IMG/VR virus record: IMGVR_UViG_2537561825_000012
Length of the DNA stretch: 37,368 nucleotides
From: a virus
Taxonomy: Duplodnaviria; Heunggongvirae; Uroviricota; Caudoviricetes
Direction: 5' to 3' (one strand)
The position numbers were made by a program, and so were the translations under genes. The notes under the pieces are model-generated. The model worked only from the letters and a program-made list of their open reading frames with translations, did not search any database and was not told where the DNA came from. Below are positions 3,081-30,247 of the stretch, piece by piece. The first letter of the stretch is position 1. Each line of letters begins with the position of its first letter.

Positions 3081-4327
3081 GCCCTTACGATGTAATTAAA
3101 CGCAATGTTACGGGGACGAATGGTCACATAATTAACCCCATCGCCTCGCGAAGGACCTGCAAATGAAAAACGGGAGAATCCAGGTTGGTTGTCAAGGATT
3201 TGGTCATAGTTATTGATTGAATGACCAGACCCAATGTCAAAATTACCTGCGTAATGAGAAAAACTTGTACCATCCTGCCGTGAAAGCAGATCGCGCCCTG
3301 TATCCACTTTTCGCCCGTCGTCCCATCCACGGATAAACTCACCGCGCAAATCGGGAAGACGGAGGGTCGGGTAGACTCTGGCCAGAACAGGATATTGTTC
3401 TTTTGTAAAGGCGCGCCCGTCGCACTTTAACCAGCCTGCTGGCGGTGTGGCAGTGGGCCACGGAACAGGTACACCAACGGGCAGCGCCGAGCCTTCCCCC
3501 AAACCAAGGTAATTGAGGACATCTTTTATACTGCCCTTAGCGATAATAGCGCGACCAATAGCTGTAAGGGTTGCCAGCTCTGCGCGGTCTGCTCCGGTAA
3601 AATAAGGCAACCGATCTGCTGCAGTGGCAAGTCCTGCCAGAGCAGTGAGCGTGGCATCTGCCGGTTGTTTTCCGTTTGCCAGATCGTATGCAGCCTTGAC
3701 CGCTTTCGGTGTGGCGGCCAGTATTTCAGACGTGCTGTTGATGGCACTGCTCAATTGTACGGTGCCTTTTGCCGTCAGCGAGGCAGCAGGCACTCCCGTT
3801 ATCTGACTCCACGGGTGAGTGTGGCTGACGGGCGCCTTGCCGGCTGCAAGGTCGTATGCAGCCTTGACCGCCTTCGGCGTGGCAGCCTCAGTTTCTGATT
3901 GACTGTCCGTGGCGCTGCTCAGTTGTACGGTGCCTTTTGCCGTCAGCGAGGCAGCAGGCACTCCCGTTATCTGACTCCACGGGTGAGTATGGCTGACGGG
4001 GGCCTTGCCGGCAGCCAGGTCATATGCAGCCTTGACGGCCTTTGGTGTGGCGGCCAGCGTTTCAGAGGTGCTGTTGGTGGCACTGCTCAGTTGGGTGAAC
4101 CCCTTAGCTGTCAGTGTCGCGTCCGGGTGGTTACGGGAACGTACGTGTTCAGCCAGTGACTGTGCGGCTTCCTCCGTTTTTTTCTTCAGCCATTTCGTCC
4201 TGTTTGCCAGTTGCCGGGGGGCTCGATTTGATATCCCGTCTGCACCACCCAGAACCGGATCTGATGTCTCCAGTTGATAGATATTTTCTTCCCACTTTTC
4301 TGTTTCATTCAGGTTTCCCATAATCAA
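3074..4327 (-). CDS. Tail fibre protein (constant part Sc fused to cassette Sv1 in the present orientation)
   Basis: 417 aa; three tandem 56-aa repeats (TAKG..QLSSA.....AATPKAVKAAYDLA.GK); C-terminus carries the conserved cassette block. Confidence 0.85.
   Translation of the reverse strand: MIMGNLNETEKWEENIYQLETSDPVLGGADGISNRAPRQLANRTKWLKKKTEEAAQSLAEHVRSRNHPDATLTAKGFTQLSSATNSTSETLAATPKAVKAAYDLAAGKAPVSHTHPWSQITGVPAASLTAKGTVQLSSATDSQSETEAATPKAVKAAYDLAAGKAPVSHTHPWSQITGVPAASLTAKGTVQLSSAINSTSEILAATPKAVKAAYDLANGKQPADATLTALAGLATAADRLPYFTGADRAELATLTAIGRAIIAKGSIKDVLNYLGLGEGSALPVGVPVPWPTATPPAGWLKCDGRAFTKEQYPVLARVYPTLRLPDLRGEFIRGWDDGRKVDTGRDLLSRQDGTSFSHYAGNFDIGSGHSINNYDQILDNQPGFSRFSFAGPSRGDGVNYVTIRPRNIAFNYIVRAA
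3494..3519. other. gix-like recombination site A at the Sc/Sv junction
   Basis: TTCCCCCAAACCAAGGTAATTGAGGA; homology between cassettes begins immediately downstream (transcript sense) of this site. Confidence 0.55.
3640..4111. repeat. Tandem 168-bp coding repeat, about 2.8 copies, inside the tail fibre gene
   Basis: GTCGTATGCAGCCTTGACCGCC-type segments recur at 3683, 3851 and 4019 (period 168 bp = 56 aa). Confidence 0.8.
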
Positions 4328-4902
4328 CTGCTCCCGTGGTTATAACTGCCATCATGGATGGCGGTATTGTTATAGCGAATGGCCACAGACTGATACTCCA
4401 GGCTGGCCAGATGGCAGCGGGCCGGTGCAAATGCAGCGAGCGTCTGACGCAGCATCGCGGCCTGATCGTTAGTAATGGGCTGTTTCAGAATAACGCGATA
4501 AACTGCCCAGGCGGCTGCATCTCCATGAACAAACAGTCCGTTATAGCTGCGATTGCCGTCGTAACTGAGACGACCTGTGCCTTCAATCAGATCCACTTCA
4601 CCAAAGCCAAAACGGCGGATAACTTCCCGGATTGACCACGGCGTCCCTTTATACCGGTGCAGTTCGATGGCTGCTTTTATAAGCATGCGGCGAACATCGT
4701 CCGATTCCGCCAGCTCCCAGCCATCGCCAGACAGTGAGAACTGCTCGCCCAGCCATGGCAGCGCGGAACTGTCGACGATATCGACGAGAAAGACCATCAG
4801 TACGCTCAGGTCGATGTTATCCAGCCGTCCTGCCAGTCTTCCCAGCGTCCTGAGACTGATATCACCCTCAAGCGGTGGCGGGAGTTGTAATGGCTCAGTC
4901 AT
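4324..4902 (-). CDS. Tail protein (P2 gpI-like / Mu gp48-like baseplate component)
   Basis: 192 aa ORF directly upstream of the fibre gene in a P2-type V-W-J-I-H-G order. Confidence 0.7.
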   Translation of the reverse strand: MTEPLQLPPPLEGDISLRTLGRLAGRLDNIDLSVLMVFLVDIVDSSALPWLGEQFSLSGDGWELAESDDVRRMLIKAAIELHRYKGTPWSIREVIRRFGFGEVDLIEGTGRLSYDGNRSYNGLFVHGDAAAWAVYRVILKQPITNDQAAMLRQTLAAFAPARCHLASLEYQSVAIRYNNTAIHDGSYNHGSS

Positions 4903-5998
4903 CAGACACTCCAGTCATGTTAAGAGTGATTGCCGTACAGTTTGCCCATTCGTTTTCTGCCACCCCCCGCAGTGCCGGTGTCACCAGTTCAACCTGGTAC
5001 ACCCCGGAAACGGACAATGCACTGATAATCTGGCTGGGGACAATATCGCGCCCCAGCGTGGCGGCACGTGATGCCACCCAGTTCTGTATGGCGCTGTTAG
5101 CGGCATCTTTTACAGACCTGGCATCCTGATCACGATAGATCGTAATCTTGGCTTCAATGGTGTAATCCACCTTCACTGGTGTTTTAGCCCGCACTGTATC
5201 AGTGAGTGGCCTGACTTTCTCATCAGAGCAGAAACTCTCTACCAGCGTGAGAACACCGCCGTCCGGCAGACCGGTACTGAGCAGCGGATACAGATCTACG
5301 GTCCCGGGAACCGGGGAAAGCACAGCAACATCGACAATGTTGGGATGGGCCTGCATGGCATGAAAGCGGTATGCGCCACGGCTTCCGGCATTGGTGAATG
5401 ACTCCGGGGCCAGCCTGATACGCTCCCGGAGCCTGTCATCGTCTTCCTGTTCTGAACCGCCGGAACTGGCCGTCAGATTGCTCACCAGCAGGTCGACGTT
5501 ATCAATCTCATCGAGTAACTGACTGCCCTGCGCAGGTTGCCAGCCGTTACCAGCGGTACCGGGTTCGGTACAGGTGGACGTGACATTGACCAGCAGCAAT
5601 CCGGCCTTCAGTACCACATCTGTATCGGTGGCAAAAATAACGCTGTCGGAAGCGCTGACGCGGGTGCCTGCCGGGATCAGCACATCAATGGCCAGTGCCT
5701 CATCTACGGAGAACTGGAGCGTGGTAGTGGCAGGCTGCGCGGCAAGACGGTATACACCGACCAGTTCACCGAGGTAATCAATCATCGGCTCACGGGCAAA
5801 GGCGACCAGATTCTGCTTTGCTGCCTCCTGTACCGCAACCCTGACCAGCATTTCGCGATAGGCCCACAGATCAATCAGCAGACGTTCTGCCTGTGCCGGG
5901 TACAGCGTTTTGCCGGTATCCGCTTCATACTTCGCAATCATTTCTGCCGTGATTTTGTCGGCATCGCGTTCAATAAAATCGGGTTCTGTCAGCGCCAT
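4895..5998 (-). CDS. Baseplate J-like protein (P2 gpJ / Mu gp47-like)
   Basis: 367 aa; position and size in baseplate cluster. Confidence 0.75.
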   Translation of the reverse strand: MALTEPDFIERDADKITAEMIAKYEADTGKTLYPAQAERLLIDLWAYREMLVRVAVQEAAKQNLVAFAREPMIDYLGELVGVYRLAAQPATTTLQFSVDEALAIDVLIPAGTRVSASDSVIFATDTDVVLKAGLLLVNVTSTCTEPGTAGNGWQPAQGSQLLDEIDNVDLLVSNLTASSGGSEQEDDDRLRERIRLAPESFTNAGSRGAYRFHAMQAHPNIVDVAVLSPVPGTVDLYPLLSTGLPDGGVLTLVESFCSDEKVRPLTDTVRAKTPVKVDYTIEAKITIYRDQDARSVKDAANSAIQNWVASRAATLGRDIVPSQIISALSVSGVYQVELVTPALRGVAENEWANCTAITLNMTGVSDD

Positions 5999-13309: not shown

Positions 13310-14736
13310 CAGTTGCCCCCTTTCAGGGTTAACAGGTATTCCGAGGTGATCTCAGTCTCAAACGTCAGTCGCTCCAGCGGCGGTGGTGGCGTATATTTGT
13401 AGCTCAGCAACAGGTGCCCGGCGGCCAGCTCCGTCTCCGGATTGCGGGCCGGATCAAACCAGCAACGGAAGCCCAGTACCGCACCATCACCAGTCATTTT
13501 GCGACCGTAGGCGTTGACCGACTCCGTCAGTGCATCAATCAGCGCCTGAGTAATCGGCATGTCGATGTACTGCTGGCTGAAATAACGAATGGACTCGTTG
13601 ATCACATCACCGGGGCGGCGAACGTTCTCAAAGTTACGCATATGGGTGACCGTTGGCCATGCTGCCGTCCGGTTACCCCACAGACGAAGGCCGCTGCCGT
13701 AACTGCTGAATACCGTGGTGATCCCCTGTTCGTTAAGCAGGTTTACCTCACTCTGCGGGTCATCAATCATCGCGGACAGCTGGCGCTCCACGCCGGTGAT
13801 CCCCAGAATCTCCTGATTGGAGGATGACCACCAGTAGCCCTTGTCCAGATCGACTCTGGCACGCAGACCTGCTGCACGCTGGCTGAGCGGCTCCAGACGC
13901 TCTGTGTTTGTCACCGGGTCATATACCTTCACATGCGGATAGCACAGACGGACGCGGTCGGAGCTGGTATTGAAGTTGATGGTGCCTTCCGGGCCACGAC
14001 CTGCCAGAGCCTGTGCAAAGGTGGTACCGACAGGCGCATCAATGTAGGTTACCGCGCCCAGCTTCTCTGCCATGGCGATAAGCTCAACTGCGACACTCTT
14101 CTGGGTGCAGAACACCGGCGCAATCAGAATTTTGGCGAAATAGCCGTACAGGTTGAAGCTGTCGTTAAGCAGCTTCATGCCGGTTCGGTTTCCGGCGCTG
14201 TTCACCCCGCCGATGATGTCCGCCGCAGTCACCTTCGACGGGTCCGCGTACTCATAGCTCACCTTCACGCTGCCACCGGCCTCAATAGCCTTGCCCAGGT
14301 TCGTGAGCACACCCGCCTGCGCATCAACACGGTAGTCCGTGTTCGCCGTGTGGGTGGTGCTGCCTTCACTGTTTTTCACCACCACATTAGCGACAACCGG
14401 ATGCGCCAGTCTGGCCTGCCCTGTCGATTTGTCAAAGGTAACCACCTCATCCTCGATCGCCGTTTTATGTTTCGCCGGGTCGAGGACGTTAATGACCAGA
14501 ACGGTGCCTGCACCATGGTCATAAATCGCATCCAGCGCCTGCGGAATGGTAAAGCCGGTGAACTGGCTGCCAAATGCCGCTGCGTCTTTCTCAGACAGGC
14601 ACTGTACCAGCGTATTGACATCCCCCATCGGGGCGGTACCAATCAGGCCAATAACGGCAGATTTCACCGTTTTAACCGGGCGGGCTCCGTTTTCCACCTC
14701 AATGGTTTCGGGACCATGCAGATAGTTAGCTGCCAT
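13309..14736 (-). CDS. Tail sheath protein (P2 FI / Mu L-like)
   Basis: 475 aa; sheath-tube gene pair. Confidence 0.85.
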   Translation of the reverse strand: MAANYLHGPETIEVENGARPVKTVKSAVIGLIGTAPMGDVNTLVQCLSEKDAAAFGSQFTGFTIPQALDAIYDHGAGTVLVINVLDPAKHKTAIEDEVVTFDKSTGQARLAHPVVANVVVKNSEGSTTHTANTDYRVDAQAGVLTNLGKAIEAGGSVKVSYEYADPSKVTAADIIGGVNSAGNRTGMKLLNDSFNLYGYFAKILIAPVFCTQKSVAVELIAMAEKLGAVTYIDAPVGTTFAQALAGRGPEGTINFNTSSDRVRLCYPHVKVYDPVTNTERLEPLSQRAAGLRARVDLDKGYWWSSSNQEILGITGVERQLSAMIDDPQSEVNLLNEQGITTVFSSYGSGLRLWGNRTAAWPTVTHMRNFENVRRPGDVINESIRYFSQQYIDMPITQALIDALTESVNAYGRKMTGDGAVLGFRCWFDPARNPETELAAGHLLLSYKYTPPPPLERLTFETEITSEYLLTLKGGN

Positions 14737-27435: not shown

Positions 27436-28200
27436 ATGAAAATGCAGACATTACCCATCGTGCCGTGGATTGGTGGCAAACGCCGCCTTGCAAAACACAT
27501 TCTGCCGCTGTTTCCGGCGCATGAATGTTATGTGGAGCCGTTTTGTGGGGCAGCAGCGCTCTATTTTCTTAAGACACCCGGCAAGATCGAAGTCATCAAT
27601 GATATCAACGGTGAACTGGTGAATCTGTACCGGGTGGTAAAGCATCACCTGGAAGAATTTGTCCGCCAGTTCAAATGGGCGCTGGTCAGCCGTCAGATCT
27701 ACAAATGGCTGCAGATCACCCCGGAAGAAACACTGACGGATATCCAGCGTGCGGCACGGTTCTACTACCTTCAGAAGCAGGCGTTTGGCGGCAAGGTGGC
27801 AGAGCACAGCTTCGGTACCTCCACCACATCCCCGCCACGCTTCAACCTGCTACGTATTGAAGAAGAACTGTCAGCGGCACACCTGCGGCTTTCCAGAACA
27901 GTCATAGAACACATGGACTGGCAACAGTGCATTGAGCGTTATGATCGTCCGCACACGCTGTTCTACTGCGACCCACCGTACCTGGGTACGGAAGGCTATG
28001 GTGTGGATTTTCCTGAAGGGAACTACTCGCGGCTGGCAGAGCTGGCCCGGTGCATCAGAGGAAAAATGATAATTTCGGTGAACGACATCCCGCAGATGCG
28101 CGAGGTGTTCACTGGACTGAACATACAGACAGTGAATATCAACTACAGTCTGGCGGGTAAACCCACGCCGCGCCGTGAACTGCTAATCTGCAACTTCTGA
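27436..28200 (+). CDS. dam: DNA adenine methyltransferase, Dam family
   Basis: WIGGK, EPFCGAAA and CDPPY motifs; ATG at 27436 (the ORF-track start at 27346 is upstream). Confidence 0.8.
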   Translation: MKMQTLPIVPWIGGKRRLAKHILPLFPAHECYVEPFCGAAALYFLKTPGKIEVINDINGELVNLYRVVKHHLEEFVRQFKWALVSRQIYKWLQITPEETLTDIQRAARFYYLQKQAFGGKVAEHSFGTSTTSPPRFNLLRIEEELSAAHLRLSRTVIEHMDWQQCIERYDRPHTLFYCDPPYLGTEGYGVDFPEGNYSRLAELARCIRGKMIISVNDIPQMREVFTGLNIQTVNINYSLAGKPTPRRELLICNF

Positions 28201-28209
28201 AACAAAACC

Positions 28210-28232
28210 GGAAAGCACAATGCTTTCCGGTA
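28210..28232 (-). terminator. Intrinsic terminator between the convergent methyltransferase and repressor genes
   Basis: CCGGAAAGCA-caa-TGCTTTCCGG 10-bp stem; UUUUGUUU follows on the minus strand, so it terminates repressor-strand transcripts and possibly both directions. Confidence 0.55.
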
Positions 28233-28316
28233 AACCAAACAACTTCCACTATGTCACTGGCGATGTTTTCTGAAAGCATCCAGATCAACCACCTGTCCTT
28301 TGTGTCCGGGTCAGTA

Positions 28317-28673
28317 TCAGCCTGCGATTTTTCCTGGTTTTGGCTGAGTATAGAATCGCCCAATCTCAAGAAATGAGCGTTGTTGGTCTGGTGTCATGTC
28401 GTCAAAAGTATCTATTAGTTTTTGTTTTTCTGGGGAAATTTGATTCTGGTTTCTAGTCATACCATCTGTGCTCATTCCAGTGAGCAACCAATTTACATCA
28501 ACATTAAACTCTTGATGCATCTTTAACAGAAACTCCCCTCCAGGCATCGCCTTTCCATTTTCAATCTGACTGATACCACCATTAGAAATACCTAAACGAG
28601 CTGCAAATTCTCTCTGGTTCAACCCTGCTTTCTTCCTCACAGAAATAACGCGCTCTCCTATATCTTTGCTCAT
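28317..28673 (-). CDS. Prophage repressor, HTH XRE (CI/Cro-type)
   Basis: N-terminal HTH LNQREFAARLGISNGGISQIENG; divergent from the early operon; operator palindrome in the intergenic region. Confidence 0.8.
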   Translation of the reverse strand: MSKDIGERVISVRKKAGLNQREFAARLGISNGGISQIENGKAMPGGEFLLKMHQEFNVDVNWLLTGMSTDGMTRNQNQISPEKQKLIDTFDDMTPDQQRSFLEIGRFYTQPKPGKIAG

Positions 28674-28696
28674 AAAAGTGAATCTCTATCTTGATA

Positions 28697-28714
28697 TGCT
28701 CATAATTATGAGCA
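28697..28714. promoter_or_regulatory. Operator: perfect 18-bp palindrome between -35 and -10 of the early promoter
   Basis: TGCTCATAATTATGAGCA, flanked by TTGATA (28691-28696) and AATAAT (28714-28719); a half-site copy TGCTCATAA lies at 28667-28675 over the repressor start codon. Confidence 0.6.
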
Positions 28715-28766
28715 ATAATCTAACACATATAAGGCAAACATCATTGCATCAACAAAGGAGACAACG

Positions 28767-28955
28767 ATGACTGCAGAACAAGTCAAAGCTCTCTTCCGCC
28801 AGCGCGGGATCACTTTCACCCGCTGGGCAGAAGAAAACGGCTACAACCGCAATGAGGTATACCGCGTTCTCAACGGGCAGACCAAAGCCCGTTACGGTAA
28901 ATCCCATGAAATCGCCGTGAAGTTGGGACTGAAATCAACAGCTCAGGCGGCCTAA
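28767..28955 (+). CDS. Small DNA-binding protein at the Ner/Cro position
   Basis: 62 aa; AAGGAG RBS; first gene of the early operon, divergent from the repressor. Confidence 0.6.
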   Translation: MTAEQVKALFRQRGITFTRWAEENGYNRNEVYRVLNGQTKARYGKSHEIAVKLGLKSTAQAA

Positions 28956-29001
28956 ATATTTTGAGTCTTTGTAAAAGGTTATCACATATCGCAAAAGAGG
29001 T

Positions 29002-29326: not shown

Positions 29327-30247
29327 ATGGGACGTACCAAATCACCGATTAACACTGAACTGAACGCCGATGTACCGCTGTCGGATGATCTCAACGTCAG
29401 CCTGAATGCCATGACACAGCATCGCATGGAGATCATGCAGCAGTTTGGTGATGGACTGCCTTATGAACGTGAACGCATCGTTCACGAAGCACGTTTTTAT
29501 ATGGCGCAGAGTGCTGAATCTATGTTGGAAGCGGGTAAGCGGCTGATCATCTTAAAAGAAAATGAACCGCATGGTGATTTCACAAATATTCTGGAAAACG
29601 ACCTCGGATTAGCACCACAGGTAGCTCGTCGCATGATGCAGGCCAGCGTGAAATTTCTCGGCAATGGAGATGAACAGCCAAAACGCTCAGCGCTGAGCGT
29701 TTTGGGAAAAACCAAGTTATATGAACTGATGGTTCTGGATGACGAAGAACTCGACGCATTAGCTGATGGTGGAACCGTCGCCGGTGCAACGCTTGATGAT
29801 ATTGATCGCATGACCAGCCGCGAACTGAAGGCCGCCCTGCGTGAAGCGCGCGAAACCAACGCAGCTCAGCAACAGGTGCTTGCCGGAAAGGACGAAAAAA
29901 TCAACGAACTGGCCACAAAACTGGAGAAGAAATCGCGCCTGCAACCTCCGCCGCCAGACGAAGAACTGAAAAAATTGCGGGCGGAAGTGACGGCATTAGC
30001 GGTTGAGGCCGAATCGGCTATCGCCGTCCGGCTGTCCAGTGTTTTTGAGACCCTGTGTGAATACTGCACCAAAAACATGATCGATACCCCCAGAGATTTC
30101 ATGGCCGGTCTGGTCTGCCAGATTGAACGCAGTGTTCATGCATTACGTGAGACGTTTGACCTTGAGGCCGCTCCATCGGGTAACGATGCCCCCGCCTGGC
30201 TGACCGAACCGGAACCTGAAATCAACCGACCGGAGGATATGCAGTAA
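29327..30247 (+). CDS. Hypothetical protein (acidic, coiled-coil rich)
   Basis: 306 aa ORF with AAGGAG RBS. Confidence 0.6.
   Translation: MGRTKSPINTELNADVPLSDDLNVSLNAMTQHRMEIMQQFGDGLPYERERIVHEARFYMAQSAESMLEAGKRLIILKENEPHGDFTNILENDLGLAPQVARRMMQASVKFLGNGDEQPKRSALSVLGKTKLYELMVLDDEELDALADGGTVAGATLDDIDRMTSRELKAALREARETNAAQQQVLAGKDEKINELATKLEKKSRLQPPPPDEELKKLRAEVTALAVEAESAIAVRLSSVFETLCEYCTKNMIDTPRDFMAGLVCQIERSVHALRETFDLEAAPSGNDAPAWLTEPEPEINRPEDMQ

Follow-up and report, generated by a model that had tools for sequence, protein, structure and literature searches.

A palindrome in the early promoter of a transposable Escherichia coli prophage, predicted operator of its immunity repressor

The locus considered here raises the question of which protein, if any, reads a perfect 18-bp palindrome, TGCTCATAATTATGAGCA, that lies between a leftward repressor gene and a rightward early operon in the virus record IMGVR_UViG_2537561825_000012 of IMG/VR (37,368 nucleotides; the whole of this stretch is called the window below). 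Escherichia phage PhiKM, classed as a Bcepmuvirus, matches the window at 100% identity, and the window represents a transposable prophage of the BcepMu/B3 type. A sequence-only reading of the region had placed the palindrome at 28697-28714, between a TTGATA and an AATAAT hexamer, coordinates that are exact, and had proposed that it serves as the operator of the lysogeny switch. That proposal is borne out, as far as comparison of sequences can do so, by co-variation between the repressor's recognition helix and the palindrome arms, by the border of a swapped immunity cassette that falls exactly at the palindrome, and by homology to the RepC repressor and the pE promoter of phage Fc02. Thus the palindrome, termed O1, is very probably the primary operator of the lysis-lysogeny switch, at which the adjacent repressor would block the early promoter, Pe. 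Anatomy, co-variation, cassette borders, conservation and homologies were computed, and from these we infer binding, promoter occlusion, cooperativity or looping, and autoregulation. As an element, O1 is of an ordinary kind, a 434-type prophage repressor operator in a B3/BcepMu-type immunity region, with three modestly interesting extras in a compact 280-bp cassette, an operator-like site inside the repressor gene (O3), and a natural table of helix-operator pairs.

The palindrome and its co-variation with the repressor

Pe has the form TTGATA-17-AATAAT, faces the first early gene from a position 47 bp upstream of it, and has a spacer that is filled entirely by O1, the final base of which is also the first base of the -10 hexamer (Table 1). 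With 10 of 12 consensus bases, Pe is the sole promoter-like sigma-70 match on either strand between 28100 and 29100. The O1 18-mer is unique in the 37-kb window even with up to three mismatches tolerated (expected 0.01), and perfect palindromes with arms of at least 8 bp occur twice in the whole window. However, simulated windows hold on average 0.18 palindromes with arms of at least 9 bp, and because 17% of them contain at least one, the palindrome by itself is merely modestly unusual and its location is what counts. The exact 9-mer TGCTCATAA occurs three times in 37 kb, as the two arms of O1 and as a copy 22 bp leftward; with one mismatch allowed there are 11 matches, a number that does not exceed chance (7.1). 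Weaker matches to TGCTCA-N6-TGAGCA are found in the window at 14292 (one mismatch) and at 4084 and 28106 (two each), at chance level and outside the cassette. The first of these, TGCCCAGGTTCGTGAGCA (14292-14309), has one arm mismatch and lies within the structural region, and the last, TGTTCACTGGACTGAACA (28106-28123), lies where the methylase gene has its 3' end and shows the operator arms in a symmetric variant.

Table 1. Coordinates of the features discussed, numbered from the first base of the window
Feature	Position	Strand	Sequence, basis or remark
Hairpin with 11-bp stem, between methylase and repressor genes	28207..28231		scored as a minus-strand terminator, 3' of the repressor stop
Immunity repressor gene, 118 aa	28317..28673	-	Pfam HTH_3 4.6e-15; homologue of Fc02 RepC
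Immunity specificity cassette, ~280 bp	28440..28714	none	BLAST borders against L003, L007 and L008; left border between 28406 and 28441
O3, intragenic operator-like site	28469..28486	none	TGCTCATTCCAGTGAGCA = TGCTCA-TTCCAG-TGAGCA; perfect arms, within the repressor gene
O2, degenerate second operator (predicted)	28667..28684	none	TGCTCATAAAAGTGAATC; 3 arm mismatches
Pe -35 hexamer	28691..28696	+	TTGATA; consensus scan; relatives have an equivalent -35 at the same register
O1, primary operator (predicted)	28697..28714	none	TGCTCATAATTATGAGCA = TGCTCA-TAATTA-TGAGCA; perfect 18-bp palindrome
Alternative repressor -10 candidate	28710-28705	-	CATAAT inside O1; relaxed scan, weak
Pe -10 hexamer	28714..28719	+	AATAAT; consensus scan; bases 2-6 (ATAAT) open the DNA common to heteroimmune relatives
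Early operon leader, conserved	28715..28766	+	Shine-Dalgarno AGGAG 28756-28760; motif CATCATTGCATCA 28739-28751
Speculative repressor promoter	28717..28725	-	extended -10 TGtTAGATT, overlaps Pe -10; relaxed scan, low confidence
First early gene, BcepMu gp16-family small helix-turn-helix protein ('Ner-like')	28767..28955	+	TIGR04111 3.2e-28; PHROG 925
Perfect palindrome of 28 bp inside the DUF3102 gene (29327-30247)	29678-29705		CCAAAACGCTCAGCGCTGAGCGTTTTGG; the other long perfect palindrome of the window

The protein encoded to the left of O1 has the features of a phage repressor of the 434 type. Its Pfam matches are to HTH_3 (4.6e-15) and Phage_CI_repr (1.8e-5), and amongst sequences in the PDB it matches 434 cI (3.4e-8) and P22 C2 (1.3e-5). 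A single-sequence model (predicted local distance difference test score, pLDDT, 73.7) comprises a five-helix helix-turn-helix (HTH) domain followed by a linker, a helical hairpin at the C-terminus and a disordered tail, with the predicted recognition helix at about residues 31-38 (NGGISQIE). In Foldseek comparisons the N-terminal domain of this model superposes on the 434 repressor 2or1 at 1.4 A with 41% identity, and on P22 c2 at 1.2-1.6 A (1.2 A for 3jxb).

Evidence that the layout is a property of the family comes from 160 loci gathered from viral and genomic collections and anchored on the conserved gp16-family protein encoded by the first early gene. Of 108 distinct upstream regions in which a promoter was well matched, 68 have their strongest inverted repeat within 130 nt centred on the promoter spacer, where position alone would lead one to expect about 13%. 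A strict test, in which at least 8 of 10 contiguous pairs had to be centred at the spacer midpoint, was passed by 12 of 42 distinct promoter classes, as compared to 1.3% of equivalent blocks elsewhere. An operator in the promoter spacer is therefore a common, not a universal, arrangement in this family.

The helix 2-turn-helix 3 segments of all homologous repressors were tabulated against the promoter spacers, and across hosts the correspondence between recognition helix and operator arms is near one-to-one over some 45 variants. The recognition region GISNGGISQIENGK accompanies the arms TGCTCA-N6-TGAGCA, GVSRE[IM]WG[RK]YERG accompanies GAGAAC-N4-GTTCTC, ELPYRTAQSYLNG accompanies TATACAC-N4-GTGTATA, and GVAKRTFIDWEKD accompanies GGTGAG...CTGCACC. 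A near-minimal pair is provided by GASRKSQIRWEKD, found with GTCCCA-N4-TGGGAC, and GASYKSQLRWEKD, found with ATCCCA-N4-TGGGAT, the arms beginning GTCCCA in the one case and ATCCCA in the other. Repressors of only 64-67% identity to that of the window have the identical helix GISNGGISQIENGKAMPGG and identical arms and differ in the six central bases; amongst relatives that share the recognition helix the arms of O1 are fixed and its centre is TAATTA or AAATAA. A natural domain swap is seen in the loci L076, L077 and L079, where the C-terminal half of the repressor is retained (85%) and the HTH domain and operator have been replaced together.

A second line of evidence is the exchange of this DNA between prophages. 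Many E. coli genomes align to the query only from its base 399, which corresponds to 28715, immediately past O1. In six heteroimmune E. coli prophages the -10 hexamer (nATAAT) and everything rightward of it are shared, and leftward each has its own repressor and its own inverted repeat, which fills the equivalent 16-17-bp promoter spacer. The repeats concerned are ATGAGAAC-AATA-GTTCTCAT, TATCCCA-TTAT-TGGGATA, TATACACA-TT-TGTGTATA, GTTGAAAATTTTCTAC, and the imperfect GGTGAGG-TAAT-CTGCACC. The exchanged block, the immunity specificity cassette of Table 1, contains the coding region of the HTH domain, O3, a second site termed O2, the -35 hexamer and O1, and it is swapped as one unit between prophages that are otherwise 79-97% identical and that have the C-terminal third of the repressor gene in common at 91-97%. 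The -35 hexamer of Pe thus falls on the variable side of the border.

Further sites in the cassette and a proposed mechanism

The copy of TGCTCATAA to the left of O1 had been described in the sequence-only reading as a half-site at 28667-28675 over the repressor start. Its position is exact, but repeat analysis extends this leftward copy to a full, degenerate site, O2, which is conserved in relatives; both the completeness of O2 and the existence of O3 inside the repressor gene had been overlooked. The left arm of O2 overlies codon 2 of the repressor gene and its start codon (28671-28673; the ATG reads 28673-28671 on the minus strand), and its centre is 30 bp from that of O1. O3 is at a distance of 228 bp from O1 and of 198 bp from O2, and its minus strand codes for L-L-T-G-M-S-T, where the HTH domain ends.

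Three diverged lineages with the specificity of the window allow the conservation of these sites to be followed. Relative to the first early gene, O1 is placed at -70, O2 at -100/-99 and O3 at -298/-297 in all three. There are no arm mismatches in O1 and none in O3, the centre of which is variable; that is, in lineages with 64-67% protein identity O3 retains 12 of 12 arm bases at equal distance. O2 is kept as TGCTCAT[AT]AAA[AG]TGAAT[CA], and the adjoining 5-6 bp vary. The segment that overlaps O3 encodes LLTG(M/V)S in the three lineages, and synonymous divergence between them is high, with 51-63% of same-residue codons differing. Invariant codons make up 10 of the 48 that encode a shared residue, yet all three of the codons in the O3 arms are invariant (Fisher p=0.007); for leucine and serine codons alone the figures are 3 of 3 in the O3 arms versus 0 of 6 elsewhere (p=0.012). 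Other repressors with the WLLTG motif use diverse leucine codons, and the clade of the window always has TTG CTC ... xTG AGC A. Over the wider family, a weaker second copy of the operator lies 29-34 bp upstream in 8 of 21 operator classes (expected 0.044), and a distal copy lies 175-277 bp upstream, within the repressor gene, in 7 of 21 (expected 0.42). This pattern of conservation argues that O2 is likely, and O3 probably, a real operator. In L076, L077 and L079, the junction between the foreign HTH segment and the window-type C-terminal half falls within the position of O3, where the right arm TGAGCA is retained and the left arm is lost.

These observations suggest a mechanism for maintenance of lysogeny. 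The repressor would bind as a symmetric dimer, probably held together by the C-terminal helical module, and would contact the TGCTCA and TGAGCA arms with no direct readout of the six central bases. Bound at O1, it would exclude RNA polymerase from Pe, because O1 takes up the whole of the spacer between -35 and -10, and would in this way silence the operon that runs from the gp16/Ner-like, IclR-like and DUF3102 genes through transposase A and B to Mor. O2 and O3 would probably add cooperative binding, and possibly looping, to stabilise occupancy.

The same sites may adjust the level of the repressor itself. O1 is separated from the repressor ATG by 23 bp and O2 lies over the ATG, and therefore repressor transcripts must either start within these sites or cross them. 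Negative autoregulation is thus judged likely; autoregulation, of unspecified sign, had been raised as a possibility in the sequence-only reading. Two weak candidates for the repressor promoter are included in Table 1, and the plus-strand sequence AATCTA[AT]CACA at the position of the first, the extended -10, is kept in the heteroimmune E. coli variants.

One feature of the repressor bears on how lysogeny might end. The Pfam scan returned no match to Peptidase_S24, the LexA-like autocleavage domain, and the model places a hairpin and a disordered tail at the C-terminus instead, so that induction must differ from the route of RecA-stimulated cleavage. The tail itself (residues ~108-118, 28317-28350) is near-invariant across heteroimmune repressors, as QPKPGKIAG or QPKPSKFAG, and is predicted to be disordered. 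It is a candidate degron, or a candidate point of contact for an antirepressor during induction, given the absence of an S24 domain, and it recalls the C-terminus of the Mu repressor, which controls sensitivity to proteases.

Competing readings and known switches

Several observations weigh against the interpretation given above, in whole or in part. The single Pe-type match does not exceed the number found in shuffled sequence (1.3 +/- 1.1), and about one per kb is expected by chance. In the family-wide comparison, 30 of the 42 promoter classes fail the strict test, some of them through an imperfect or differently placed repeat. In the Pseudomonas loci L083, L106 and L139 the HTH is of another type, GVARNTIYNWMAKGN, and yet the arms, TGCTCA-N6-TGAGCA, are identical to those of the window. 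With respect to O2 and O3, the zones in which second and distal copies were counted were set after the data had been seen, the operator classes are not wholly independent of one another, the codon test on O3 is based on three lineages, and the distances between O1 and O3 in other classes (175-277 bp) share no helical phase. Finally, consensus and relaxed scans yielded no convincing repressor promoter, weak candidates alone being found. The Pseudomonas loci look like a case of convergence on identical arms; counted from the ATG of ner, their site lies at about -91 to -123, and L106 and L139 have a near-complete second site over the repressor start.

It is conceivable that the palindrome is real but that another protein reads it. 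Both the Ner-like and the IclR-like proteins are predicted to bind DNA, and a site for a lytic regulator of the Cro type would not be out of place here: in lambda, 434 and P22 the operators of cI also serve Cro, and Ner of Mu binds between Pe and Pc. However, strain 83972 encodes a Ner-like protein that is 100% identical and an IclR-like protein that is 99% identical to those of the window, and these accompany a wholly different palindrome; the palindrome follows the recognition helix of the repressor and not either of these proteins, which leaves such a reading very unlikely. Because the DNA common to heteroimmune phages starts after the palindrome, sites for the gp16-family and IclR-like proteins are more likely to lie in the conserved leader. 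Alternatively, the region might double as, or mainly be, a transposition enhancer in the manner of the internal activation sequence (IAS) of Mu, to which the N-terminal domain of the transposase binds. The IAS overlaps O1-O2 of Mu, and the window phage is also transposable and encodes a DDE transposase; the sequence-only reading had noted that the operator region of Mu also serves as an enhancer, an analogy that found no support. The logic of Mu requires a DNA-binding domain that is common to repressor and transposase, but here the repressor resembles neither its own transposase (E=21) nor Mu c (E=0.54), and a transposase that remains 97-99% identical across phages of different operator type, with wholly different operators, could hardly read the variable operators specifically. 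An enhancer reading is likewise very unlikely.

Also very unlikely is that the palindrome has no specific protein partner, and is either an accident of an AT-rich promoter or a hairpin or terminator. Locally the GC content is 32%, versus 55% over the window, and perfect 18-bp palindromes arise in simulated windows at the frequency given above. Against this stand the different inverted repeats in the equivalent spacer across many independent immunity types, the conservation of arms around a variable centre, and the additional copies at fixed offsets; moreover, O1 is placed upstream of the predicted start of Pe and has neither a loop nor a T-run, which speaks against a hairpin or terminator. A more serious alternative, although still an unlikely one, accepts O1 as a true operator and regards the other two sites as non-functional; O2 would then be a relic half-site, and O3 would be an incidental by-product of coding for WLLTG. 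The three arm mismatches of O2, the overlap of O3 with a strongly conserved protein motif, and the small number of lineages and post hoc zones behind the statistics would all fit this view. It accounts poorly for the retention of O2 beside flanks that vary and for the excess of second copies at 29-34 bp, and a by-product of the motif would not explain why the leucine, leucine and serine codons of the O3 arms are invariant when all six of the other shared leucine and serine codons vary, nor why other WLLTG repressors use other codons.

The reading in which the repressor acts at O1 also agrees with what has been described for a related phage, the Pseudomonas phage Fc02 of the B3 family (Beetrevirus). 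Fc02 RepC, the function of which has been verified genetically, is a full-length homologue of the window repressor (32% over 114 aa, E=2e-19), and the ner-like protein of Fc02 is 59% identical to the first early protein of the window (E=1e-25). Strand-specific RNA-seq of an Fc02 repressor(ts) mutant showed that a heat shift starts transcription from pE, upstream of ner, into the transposase operon, and that pE overlaps the repressor promoter pC2 in a divergent intergenic region of 106 bp (PMC9936078), which compares to 93 bp between repressor and first early gene in the window. In the Fc02 lysogen the repressor is transcribed mostly from a distal promoter, pC1; the study maps promoters and transcripts and defines no operators (PMC9936078). 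In the Fc02 DNA as examined here, pE reads TTGACT-17-CAATAT and holds GGGAC-N6-GTCCC in its spacer, an additional GTCCC half-site adjoins the repressor start, and TTGATA-17-CATAGT, a predicted promoter that points leftward, overlaps this DNA as well. Judged by these elements, the architecture of the Fc02 pE region is the same as that of the window. The two phages differ in operator sequence, host and virion module, and no counterpart of pC1 was identified in the window.

Comparison with better-known switches emphasizes both the familiar and the unfamiliar parts of this one. As in 434 and P22, the repressor has a five-helix DNA-binding fold and is divergent from the lytic operon, there are three predicted operator sites, and the operators are dyad-symmetric and 14-18 bp in length, their outer arms being conserved and their centre variable. 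Unlike 434 cI and P22 c2, the window repressor is a protein of 118 aa with a small helical hairpin in place of a RecA-cleavable S24 C-terminal domain, the promoter spacer holds one operator and the repressor gene another, and the protein in the position of Cro does not co-vary with the operators. Mu is likewise transposable, with a repressor gene that diverges from an early operon extending to the transposase genes, a small DNA-binding protein encoded first in that operon, and three operator regions. It differs in that the window repressor has no similarity to Mu c and the first early protein no significant similarity to Mu Ner, in that the switch of Mu is at the genome end and that of the window is internal to the prophage, and in that the operators of the window are simple palindromes. 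The combination of HTH_3 domain, linker and C-terminal hairpin is shared with XRE-type regulators such as SinR and DdrO (the top Foldseek match is SinR, 1b0n, with DdrO and the phi106 repressor also found), which in contrast regulate cellular genes or belong to other phages; superposition over the full length is poor (root-mean-square deviation 11-16 A), and confidence in the C-terminal part of the model is no more than moderate. Searches of the literature on PhiKM, BcepMu operators, regulation of ST131 prophages and operators of D3112 and B3 yielded no account of this operator.

The prophage around the switch

Of 5426 complete E. coli genomes, 623 (~11%) contain the prophage or a close relative of it. 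About 390 of the 623, many of them clinical isolates, match at 99% identity or more and have precisely this immunity region. The prophage of strain 4/1-1 adjoins ycaL. The window stops at the stop codon of Mor (37368), and since ycaL begins 144 bp beyond that point in strain 4/1-1, the right end of the prophage must lie outside the window. A DNA adenine methylase gene on the plus strand is followed by the repressor gene on the minus strand and then by the plus-strand early operon, which encodes in order the gp16-family HTH protein, an IclR-like winged HTH (wHTH) protein, a DUF3102 protein, a 105-aa protein, the DDE transposase, an AAA+ transposition protein, Gam, GemA and Mor. These assignments follow the annotated PhiKM genome and the annotated prophage of E. 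coli 4/1-1, and an rve domain was found in the transposase.

The first early gene had been called Ner-like in the sequence-only reading. That label is mainly positional; the protein belongs to the gp16 family of BcepMu, with a TIGR04111 score of 97 bits against a cut-off of 34, and is without significant similarity to Ner of Mu: BLASTP returned E=5.9, hhalign a probability of 8.6% (E=0.004, collinear over 51 columns), and the match to HTH_35, the Ner family, is under the 25-bit cut-off (17.9 bits, E=0.0032). Upstream of this gene, just 5' of the Shine-Dalgarno sequence, relatives in E. coli, Pseudomonas, Xanthomonadales and Photorhabdus all keep the motif CATC(A/T)TTGCATCA (28739-28751) despite differing operators. 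The motif is a candidate target of some conserved regulator (perhaps the gp16/Ner-like protein itself) or a candidate leader element of the mRNA. A direct repeat, TAACACATAT / TATCACATAT (28721-28730 and 28980-28989), precedes the gp16-like gene and the IclR-like gene, respectively, and may be a regulatory site common to the two.

The other long perfect palindrome of the window lies about 1 kb downstream, inside the DUF3102 gene. In some 25 distinct relatives a palindrome of 24-28 bp occupies the equivalent position, with the outer CAAA...TTTG and the central CG invariant. Its inner arms vary in a compensatory fashion, such that 7 of 14 pairs change on both sides, and there are 61 doubly changed cells versus 19 in shuffles; these palindromes were selected for palindromy, which inflates the paired fraction and leaves the diversity unaffected. 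The doubly changed pairs include the innermost ones, which is impossible in an RNA hairpin. No co-variation was seen between this palindrome and the transposase, TnpB, the IclR-like protein or the gp16-family protein. By comparison, a hypervariable, HTH-like segment of DUF3102 itself (~residues 84-108) switches type together with the palindrome, which is encoded ~10 codons downstream. The palindrome may be a self-encoded binding site of the DUF3102 protein; alternatively, tight linkage may account for the joint switching of segment and palindrome. Searches for DUF3102 found no known function and no solved homologue, and the single-sequence model is too poor to be of use (pLDDT 47). A second clade (L036, L042, L045, L063, L073 and L145) has an odd-centred palindrome, AAAAC-N5-(A/C)CGG(T/G)-N5-GTTTT, which lies at about +803 to +815 as counted from the ATG of ner; because this is the equivalent place downstream of the early regulators, the phenomenon seems wider than one DUF3102 subfamily.

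A broader proposal, which we put forward tentatively and regard as speculative, is that the ~280-bp block from 28440 to 28714 is a portable and self-contained cassette. It would combine an HTH domain with three operators, one of which, O3, is carried in the block's own coding sequence near the left recombination border. Looping between O1/O2 and O3 would then enclose the DNA that encodes the repressor's own DNA-binding domain, and exchange of the whole cassette would be the means by which this prophage family, very common in E. coli, diversifies its immunity. On the same view, the DUF3102 segment and its 28-bp palindrome may be a second such cassette.

For E. coli lysogens, a known switch tells which prophages are mutually immune, and provides a handle on induction or curing. 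It also corrects the annotation, as the repressor gene is absent from the GenBank record of PhiKM (PQ738613), in which positions 4818-5333, corresponding to 28251-28766 of the window, are annotated with a 126-nt plus-strand 'hypothetical protein' and no coding sequence for the repressor; RefSeq genomes of E. coli annotate the 118-aa protein as WP_000031013.1. Finally, the table of some 45 natural helix-operator variants offers candidate orthogonal repressor/operator pairs, and is a natural data set on how specificity changes in HTH domains of the 434 type.

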